Of a stretch of 21,394 nt of DNA, positions 4,856-5,076 are shown piece by piece. The stretch is from UHGV virus genome UHGV-0175408. One strand, given 5' to 3'. The notes beneath the pieces were generated by a model that ran no database searches, was not told the origin of the DNA, and saw only the letters and a list, made by a program, of their open reading frames with translations. How positions within the stretch are numbered: position 1 is the stretch's first letter; every line of letters begins with the position of its first letter. This stretch comes from a virus. Both the position numbers and the translations under genes were made by a program.

Positions 4856-4884
4856 TTTAAACCATTTTTAAAGCTTAGTAATAT
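4856..4884 (+). promoter_or_regulatory. Candidate sigma70 promoter (TTTAAA-N17-TAATAT)
   Basis: Good -35/-10 hexamers with 17-bp spacing on the plus strand in the non-coding region upstream of the lysis genes; coordinates from manual indexing, +/- 2 bp. Confidence 0.35.
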
Positions 4885-4890
4885 CAACTC

Positions 4891-5039
4891 GTCTCCGGAA
4901 GGAGACCGATACTTATTCTTCTTCACGGACTTTGTCCCGCGGCGTTAATCCGACAGCCGCGCTTTTTTTGCGCCATATTCATCGCTGACTTACATGGCAT
5001 TGCCACACGGACATTATCAGTGTCCGTGTTTTCTTTTTT
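4891..5039 (+). ncRNA. Candidate small RNA bounded by the predicted promoter and an intrinsic terminator
   Basis: About 150 nt between the candidate promoter and a strong plus-strand terminator; no convincing ORF; antisense to the leader of the minus-strand late/lysis transcript. Confidence 0.3.
5005..5039 (+). terminator. Rho-independent terminator (plus strand)
   Basis: Perfect 9-bp stem acacggaca/tgtccgtgt with 7-nt loop, followed by tttcttttttc. Confidence 0.55.
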
Positions 5040-5051
5040 CGAATTAAGAAT

Positions 5052-5076
5052 AAAAAAAACCGCCAGATACGGCGGT
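5052..5076 (-). terminator. Rho-independent terminator (minus strand; tRNA/late-leader terminator, tR'-like)
   Basis: Stem accgcc/ggcggt preceded on the plus strand by A8, so a U8 tract follows the hairpin on the minus strand; convergent with the plus-strand terminator. Confidence 0.5.

Follow-up and report, generated by a model that had tools for sequence, protein, structure and literature searches.

A predicted plus-strand small-RNA gene in the spacer before the lysis genes of Escherichia coli lambdoid prophages

The stretch of DNA analysed here, UHGV virus genome UHGV-0175408 (21,394 nt; hereafter the window), probably carries a small-RNA (sRNA) gene on its plus strand, at positions 4856-5039. 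A lambdoid prophage of porcine enterotoxigenic E. coli (ETEC) strains is 100% identical to the window, and in its RefSeq annotation every late gene lies on the minus strand. The predicted gene is located on the opposite strand, within a non-coding spacer that has tRNA genes on one side and a holin gene on the other, downstream of Q and its inserted cargo and upstream of the lysis genes. For the full statement, that this is a plus-strand sRNA gene whose product also acts in trans, we estimate a probability of about 60%; in the existence of the gene as such we have clearly more confidence. An earlier note on this DNA had proposed an independent plus-strand sRNA that ends at an intrinsic terminator, and covariation, strand-specific wobble pairs and the promoter hexamers of paralogues now support that proposal at the level of sequence comparison.

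Architecture and strand of the predicted RNA

The gene is preceded by a predicted sigma-70-type promoter with a -35 hexamer TTTAAA (4856-4861), a 17-nt spacer and a -10 hexamer TAATAT (4879-4884), which places the inferred transcription start at ~4890-4892. The promoter matches the consensus at 8 of 12 positions, under our scan threshold of 9 of 12, and its prediction is supported by comparison, not by the consensus score alone. The -35 hexamer is identical in 49 of 50 variants and the -10 hexamer reads TAATAT, TAGTAT or TAGAAT, while the paralogues described below have TTTAAA-17-TATGAT, TATACT or TAGTAT with unrelated spacer sequences. Such conservation of hexamers at a fixed spacing, amid diverged surroundings, is the best available evidence for a real promoter. 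The earlier note had read the same promoter (4856-4884) followed about 150 nt later by a strong terminator, and both signals are indeed present, the latter at 5005-5029.

Host sigma-70 RNA polymerase would initiate at ~4891 in the lysogen, and the transcript would consist of a 5' stem-loop, an unpaired stretch of ~20 nt, a small hairpin and a terminator. The 5' stem-loop (H1, 4891-4906, GUCUCC-GGAA-GGAGAC, -9.1 kcal/mol) is found at or beside the predicted 5' end. It is followed by the C/U-rich unpaired stretch CGAUACUUAUUCUUCUUCAC (4907-4926), a candidate seed that is near-invariant within the window-type class, and by the small hairpin H2 (4927-4937, GGAC-UUU-GUCC), which opens the conserved 3' module. 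A first terminator, T1 (4938-4969), which the earlier note had overlooked, has a stem at 4938-4944/4955-4961 (CGCGGC(G)...(A)GCCGCG) followed by C and U7 (4963-4969); its stem of 6-7 bp carries a loop of 10-12 nt, and its folding energy is -11.6 kcal/mol. Termination at T1 (~4967) would yield an RNA of ~78 nt. Read-through would extend the RNA past the hairpin H4 (4995-5005) to a second terminator, T2 (5005-5039), with a 3' end at ~5038 and a length of ~148 nt. T2 has the stem ACACGGACA...TGTCCGTGT (5005-5029) followed by TTTTCTTTTTT, with its U-run at 5030-5039 and a folding energy of -14.5 kcal/mol.

Terminator-like sites were scanned in the region 3500-6500 and compared with shuffled sequences, which gave 16 sites against 3.6 +/- 1.4 in the shuffles. 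The top two were T2 on the plus strand (5005-5029) and a terminator on the minus strand (5077-5058), each with a G+C-rich hairpin and a U-run. In most relatives H4 and T2 form a diverged tandem repeat of GGACUUUGUCC plus T1, which is matched a second time by our covariance model R1, built from window-type sequences (21.9 bits). The segment between the plus-strand terminators in these relatives is AAAGGACUUUGUCC-CACGAG...CUCGUG-U7 (e.g. L151 1664-1731), and in the window its small hairpin (4995-5039) has drifted to UGGCAUUGCCA. A minimum-free-energy fold in which the 5' region pairs with the unpaired stretch was rejected, since the variants covary for the simple 5' hairpin and not for that pairing.

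The structure was assessed in an alignment of 31 distinct sequences (A1, 4886-5046), in which five helices were tested, namely the 5' hairpin, GGAC/GUCC, T1, H4 and T2. Paired cells make up 95.1% of these helices, and sliding the partners by 1-3 columns lowers this to 34-49%. Seven pairs have changed on both sides. The covariation score is 0.242 versus 0.138 in shuffles, none of 500 shuffles reaching 0.242, and compensatory changes occur in all five plus-strand hairpins among ~100 related prophages. The 5' stem-loop is 99.5% paired, with one pair changed on both sides (UA in 16 sequences, CG in 15) and U.G or G.U at three pairs, and the stem persists despite 1-nt insertions and deletions (indels). 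H2 is 100% paired. In T1 two pairs have changed on both sides, and further compensatory changes are found in the second copy of prophage L063. The T2 region shows both-sided changes at pairs 128-143 and 129-142, and U.G at pair 130-141 in 19 of the 31 sequences.

The direction of the wobble pairs is more telling than the covariation counts, as judged from these alignments. In the plus-strand gene there are 48 G.U cells that are valid on the plus strand only, versus 16 A.C cells, which on the minus strand would be G.U; leaving out a single lineage with decay in both terminators changes the numbers to 42 and 3. The flanks show the opposite bias. On the holin side, minus-valid cells outnumber plus-valid cells by 75 to 3 in a minus-strand terminator (4713-4728), by 22 to 3 in a minus-strand hairpin at 4749-4764 and by 12 to 4 in another at 4793-4808. 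On the tRNA side, a minus-strand RNA with 33 predicted pairs (5250-5046) has 83 minus-valid G.U cells versus 6 A.C cells. A plus-strand RNA gene thus appears to be embedded between minus-strand RNA elements.

The spacer (750 nt) is 76-94% identical across hundreds of E. coli genomes and two deposited phages. Its neighbours vary: the lysis side has either a P27-type holin pair or essD/rrrD, and upstream there is a methylase gene or Q. Among 5426 complete E. coli genomes, 297 contain the full module and 477 contain parts of it. Another 102 loci were recovered from IMG/VR by an exact-pattern scan, and when one genome per species was scanned the exact conserved 30-mer was found only in Escherichia ruysiae, at one locus. 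The best-conserved block of the spacer is 4810-4965. In the prophage group of L024 and L063 the similarity to the window runs from ~4790 to directly after the T-run of T1, and beyond that boundary this group has a different minus-strand terminator and a tRNA-like sequence. These boundaries suggest that the unit that moves between contexts consists of the promoter, the 5' hairpin, the unpaired stretch and T1.

Paralogues with different unpaired stretches

A further ~180 E. coli genomes match just 4927-4971 of the window. One of these matches belongs to a paralogue (L121 2424-2548; NZ_CP027447.1, ~1356.68-1356.80 kb) flanked by zinT and a serU tRNA fragment, and no lysis gene is found within 2.5 kb of it. 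This paralogue keeps the upstream motif (see below), TTTAAA, exactly 17 nt, TATGAT and the 3' block, and has a different spacer, 5' hairpin and unpaired stretch. A broader pattern scan, followed by sorting on the 22 nt that precede GGAC, gave four classes of unpaired stretch. The classes share the upstream motif, 6-7 variable nucleotides, TTTAAA, 17 nt, TAnnnT, a 5' hairpin, and H2 with T1, whereas the sequences of the spacer, the hairpin and the unpaired stretch all differ between classes. The paralogues thus form the 5' hairpin too, from a different sequence, and every class has H2. In place of CGAUACUUAUUCUUCUUCAC the three other classes have unrelated sequence on the identical scaffold: GGGAAAUUCAACAACUCUUGGAAAUUA, ACGGAAAUUCGUUAUGCUUCAC and AUGUAAUUAAGUCAAACUUCAU (L121 2424-2548, L063 1959-2110 on the minus strand, and L127 ~6790-6960). 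Model R1 scores 109 bits on the window and 47-56 bits on the paralogues. In L063 two classes occur in tandem, 1 kb apart in one prophage, and one of the copies is found exactly at the site of the window gene, facing the same minus-strand terminator.

The upstream motif TTACCGGAAATTAAGGTCAAT (4828-4848) lies ~43-65 nt 5' of the predicted start and occurs in all four classes as TTACC(A/G)GAAAT(T/A)nAG(G/A)T(T/C)AA(T/C), followed by the 6-7 nt that differ among the classes, as do the promoter spacer and the seed. It holds a partial dyad, ACC-N9-GGT, and may for this reason be the binding site of a regulator; an UP-like element could be an alternative.

A fixed scaffold that carries swappable unpaired stretches fits the expected look of a base-pairing sRNA, and the variation of the unpaired stretch on a kept scaffold suggests that its targets are elsewhere. 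We therefore expect that the RNA, if made, would most likely act in trans, as a base-pairing regulator that is produced in the lysogen and uses the unpaired stretch as its seed. A chaperone would bind at the terminator hairpin and its U-tail, as it does in PasA, AsxR and AgvB, and the RNA may then depend on Hfq. Pairing with the Q-antiterminated late transcript could take place only during lytic growth and is regarded as a secondary possibility.

A more far-reaching idea, which we put forward tentatively and consider rather doubtful as a whole, is that of a modular family of prophage sRNAs. In such a family the fixed scaffold (upstream motif, TTTAAA-17-TAnnnT, 5' hairpin, and GGACUUUGUCC with its terminator) would be recombined with unrelated seeds of ~20 nt, in at least four classes, some in tandem, in ~5-9% of E. 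coli genomes. By exchanging seeds, related prophages would steer host regulation towards different targets; expression would be coupled to a regulator through the upstream motif, and lysis would in addition be restrained by the conserved placement of the gene opposite the lysis operon. Natural variants that have the same scaffold and different seeds would be a ready system to study how sRNA target specificity evolves via module exchange, and they would also reveal the purpose of placing facing small RNAs before lysis genes. This natural set of seed variants is the feature of most follow-up value; the practical gain is modest, consisting of improved annotation and one more candidate regulator.

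Known prophage small RNAs and the mode of action

The layout of facing sRNAs before a holin gene is already known, and the sequence family is undescribed. In O157 prophages, convergent sRNA genes are found at the insertion ('moron') site downstream of the Q-antiterminated promoter PR', e.g. AsxR/EcOnc02 with EcOnc27, and AgvB/EcOnc01; related copies have a common 3' part and variable 5' parts (Tree et al. 2014, PMC4104026). The window gene resembles these in its site, between Q/PR' with cargo and the lysis genes, in the presence of two facing units with their own terminators, and in having copies with conserved 3' and differing 5' parts. It differs in lacking a sequence or structure match, in predicted length (~78 or 148 nt versus 51-60 nt), in beginning with a 5' hairpin, and in its cargo, which consists of tRNA genes and not of a toxin gene. 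In the enteropathogenic E. coli (EPEC) strain E2348/69, PasA occurs in forms of 85 and 236 nt, antisense between an upstream gene and the holin gene (Pearl Mizrahi et al. 2021, PMC8550237 table S6). The likeness of the window RNA to PasA and PasC lies in an antisense orientation to the late genes directly before the holin, and in a form of ~80 nt with a longer form that ends at a second terminator. This is a likeness of position and not evidence of family membership: PasA lacks a 5' hairpin and has a proposed seed that overlaps its terminator stem.

Homology searches agree with this distinction. A covariance-model search of Rfam, the check that the earlier note had suggested, gave no plus-strand sRNA match, either in the whole window at gathering scores or in 4600-5700 and 4990-5300 at permissive E-values, and on the minus strand only the sub-threshold STnc100 match discussed below. 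No Rfam family matched the plus-strand RNA at E-values up to 10; the models of AsxR (RF02703), AgvB (RF02702) and Esr41 (RF02676) matched neither strand of 4600-5700 at E-values up to 10, and blastn (word size 7) detected no similarity to the Pas RNAs in 4700-5100. Conversely, R1 found no match in the PasA, PasB, PasC and PasD loci of E2348/69, with L014 and L016 giving none at E-values up to 10. A literature search with four exact sequence strings from the gene returned no paper from the collection searched, and the conserved motif is absent from the supplements of Tree et al. (2014), which hold probe sequences only. AsxR, AgvB and the Pas RNAs are prophage sRNAs that rewire host regulation and virulence, and RNAs of this kind are known so far from a few enterohaemorrhagic E. 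coli and EPEC strains. The family described here is found in ETEC (e.g. ETEC1732, NZ_CP122823.1, ~1241.85-1242.03 kb), commensal and environmental strains and in the laboratory strain E. coli W (NC_017664.1, complement 1515645..1515731), and is absent from Rfam and from genome annotation.

As an alternative to action in trans, the RNA could be a cis-antisense regulator of the late/lysis transcript, which by pairing with the Q-antiterminated mRNA or by promoter collision would delay or damp holin synthesis, or would suppress leaky lysis expression in the lysogen. All window-type relatives examined have the gene 200 nt before the start of the holin gene and on the other strand, with perfect complementarity to any read-through transcript. 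PasA and the PasA/C-like gene of EPEC prophage PP4 hold the same position, so the position may itself be selected. In the lysogen, however, minus-strand transcription would be halted by the 5077-5058 terminator before it reaches the gene, which would leave the RNA without a partner for pairing. Nor does the RNA overlap the holin ribosome-binding site, which is ~200 nt away, past three minus-strand hairpins and a terminator; the paralogue beside zinT and the serU fragment has no lysis genes nearby; and a purely cis-acting RNA would not need different seeds on a kept scaffold. We consider this explanation unlikely, although it is the strongest of the rivals. The antisense control that the earlier note had suggested thus stands in part: the RNA is complementary to the Q-antiterminated late transcript, but control of lysis by that complementarity finds no support, as the overlap misses the holin ribosome-binding site, the late-gene starts pair within background and one paralogue lies far from lysis genes.

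Lambda OOP and P22 sar are short cis-antisense RNAs that end at intrinsic terminators and are transcribed against a phage operon. Both overlap the coding region or ribosome-binding site that they control, and their sense transcript is present simultaneously. For the window RNA, in contrast, the overlap would be confined to an untranslated leader, and the sense transcript of a lysogen would stop short of the gene.

A second rival regards the site as a mere bidirectional stop for transcription that serves as an insulator between the tRNA unit and the lysis cassette, any plus-strand transcript being short-lived noise. Phage genomes often have facing terminators between modules, and the window has a similar pair where Q and the porin gene adjoin (minus strand 8771-8740, plus strand 8858-8877). 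An insulator would not need the promoter, the 5' hairpin and the unpaired stretch, which are conserved to 90-100%. It also leaves unaccounted for the paralogues, in which different middles are combined with a common promoter geometry and 3' module, and the tandem copies 1 kb apart in one prophage. We deem it improbable.

Slightly less probable still is that the conserved block acts on the minus strand, in the late mRNA leader, as the gene of a 32-aa protein (4926-4828) or as an element of RNA processing or structure, with the plus-strand signals a coincidence. The sequence AAG-AAG-AAU-AAG on the minus strand and the minus-strand signature of the nearby hairpins (4713-4808) would suit it, as would the 32-aa open reading frame (ORF), which overlaps the sRNA gene and alternates between GTG and ATG as its start. 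Of 50 variants, 38 have this ORF intact, and 12 have 1-nt indels within the 5' hairpin that shift the frame and yet keep the stem. The minimum numbers of changes per codon position (19, 14 and 21) display no codon-position bias, and 17 synonymous variants stand against 37 non-synonymous ones, among them non-conservative swaps such as R/W and E/M. The plus strand is favoured by the wobble pairs of H1-H5 and carries both T-runs, and the paralogues replace the whole ORF region while the promoter and the terminator stay. With its frameshifts and without a coding signature, the ORF was rejected as a gene, with some residual doubt. For the same reasons, and since the peptide is not hydrophobic and in this respect unlike a type I toxin, a type I toxin-antitoxin pair was rejected as well.

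The remaining ORFs give no better candidate, in line with the absence of a convincing plus-strand ORF reported in the earlier note. The only gene that RefSeq annotates in the spacer encodes a 132-aa 'hypothetical protein' (WP_064226585.1; GTG start, 4923-5321 on the minus strand). It spans two intrinsic terminators and the sRNA gene, and is almost certainly spurious because just 2 of the 69 distinct spacer variants have it intact; the 69 variants have no conserved long ORF. Short plus-strand ORFs were rejected; one of 7 aa starts at a CATGG variant where the window has CACGG.

Several points weigh against the reading as a trans-acting sRNA gene. The support for it is comparative, and the aligned sequences are closely related, so that the covariation cell counts overstate the number of independent events. 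An L012-type lineage lacks pairing in both terminators, and in the commonest lineage the T-run of T1 begins 4 nt past the stem (CTAC-TTTT), where T1 may be inefficient. The promoter is weak alone, sites of equal quality occurring about once per 446 nt per strand in the window. The 65 bp upstream of the promoter are conserved to the same degree as the gene itself, and there is the frequent intactness of the 32-aa ORF. Finally, no target was found inside the window beyond the perfect antisense site, and the translation starts of the holin and other late genes pair with the unpaired stretch within background (-12.1 kcal/mol versus a mean of -8.5 +/- 2.9).

The facing minus-strand RNA and neighbouring features

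The plus-strand terminators (4938-4969 and 5005-5039) face a terminator on the minus strand (5077-5050), and the two units have opposite strand signatures. The minus-strand terminator, which the earlier note had correctly placed beside the plus-strand one, has its stem at 5077-5058 (AACCGCC...GGCGGTT), followed by T8 down to ~5050; its polarity is indicated by the T-run, which only the minus strand has. Of 61 variants, ~60 have an unchanged stem, whereas the loop is variable. The predicted 3' ends are ~12 nt apart (~5039 on the plus strand and ~5051 on the minus strand), so the two units would not overlap unless the terminators were overridden.

The sRNA would thus face a structured RNA that ends at this terminator. 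The minus-strand RNA (~5046-5250, located 3' of tRNA-Gly) was predicted by RNAalifold from 37 variants. No promoter is evident for it, and it may be a processed 3' trailer of the tRNA transcript. The Rfam model STnc100 (RF02076) matches it over its full length (5048-5244, minus strand) with 22.6 bits and E = 0.0045, below the gathering score of 47; on PasD1 and PasD2 the same model scores 37.7 and 41.4 bits, and none of the window's relatives reaches E = 0.01. PasD1/2 are RNAs of 172-173 nt, encoded in sense orientation upstream (Pearl Mizrahi et al. 2021, PMC8550237), and PasD has been linked to STnc100 (Zhu, Shabalina and Storz 2026 preprint, 10.64898/2026.05.13.724894). Like STnc100/PasD, the minus-strand RNA is on the late-gene strand, is ~200 nt long, ends at a terminator that faces an antisense sRNA, and has an internal GGGAGGCACCC hairpin enclosed by an outer stem. 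With its low score set against these features, a distant relationship to STnc100/PasD is possible. The gene order of EPEC prophage PP4, PasD1 followed by a facing PasA/C-like terminator, a sense hairpin and the holin gene, matches that of the window. In strain KFu024 (L013 1474-1542 versus window 5064-5219), 68 nt of unrelated sequence replace most of the STnc100-like RNA; the breakpoint is within the minus-strand terminator and the plus-strand sRNA gene is intact (103.5 bits).

The earlier note had also considered a tR'-like attenuation point here. The minus-strand terminator, however, closes a conserved structured RNA after the tRNAs and is no tR'-like attenuator: it lies 3.8 kb downstream of the end of Q, past the porin gene, the methylase gene and the tRNAs. 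A better-placed tR' candidate lies on the minus strand at 8771-8740, 138 nt from the end of Q, and consists of a hairpin of 14 bp with a T-run.

Between the sRNA gene and the holin gene, the three minus-strand hairpins of 4713-4808 show compensatory changes together with their minus-strand wobble bias. The last of these (4728-4713, GGGCCGCTGGTGGCCC plus T6) is terminator-like and is found directly before the holin ribosome-binding site, and a similar pre-holin hairpin occurs in EPEC PP4 (L017 2276-2304). It could act as a gate that makes the lysis genes dependent on read-through, or mark where another sense RNA ends. In strain P13-6 (L002 1578-2152), genes of the TerB family and of DUF3927 are inserted on the late strand at window position 4779-4787, between the sRNA gene and the holin-proximal hairpins. 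TerB is among the genes conserved near PasA/PasC (Zhu et al. 2026, 10.64898/2026.05.13.724894), and DUF3927 genes are found just upstream of PasD1 and PasD2 in E2348/69.

In the RefSeq annotation Q (8909-9292, minus strand) is the first gene in late transcription order. It is followed by an OmpC-like porin gene (7622-8719), oriented opposite to the late genes, and then by a DNA methylase gene, the tRNA genes (5439-5592, minus strand), the ~750-nt spacer, two holin genes, of which the first is at 4295-4687 on the minus strand, the endolysin gene and the terminase gene. ARAGORN identified tRNA-Gly (5439-5513, minus strand). A second, weaker tRNA (5520-5592, minus strand) was detected by Rfam only, with 45.9 bits; it has mismatches in the anticodon and T stems, was missed by ARAGORN and is unannotated by RefSeq in the identical strain. 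At the same place relatives have an intact tRNA-Thr(TGT) of 73.8 bits, for which reason the window copy looks like a decaying tRNA gene.

At the Q-porin junction (8740-8877) the tR' candidate forms a second facing terminator pair with a plus-strand hairpin at 8858-8877 (GGGGGCG...CGTCCCC plus T6), ~140 nt past the porin stop codon. In the prophage porin genes nmpC and lc, the 3' untranslated region gives rise to the IpeX RNA. Elsewhere in the window, Rfam models detected a C4 antisense RNA (84.4 bits) and an adjacent isrK RNA (55.4 bits) at 13575-13763 on the minus strand, both above their gathering scores and located inside or beside genes of ash-family and Rha-family regulators. By these matches the region looks like an immunity RNA module of the P1/P7 type in this lambdoid prophage.

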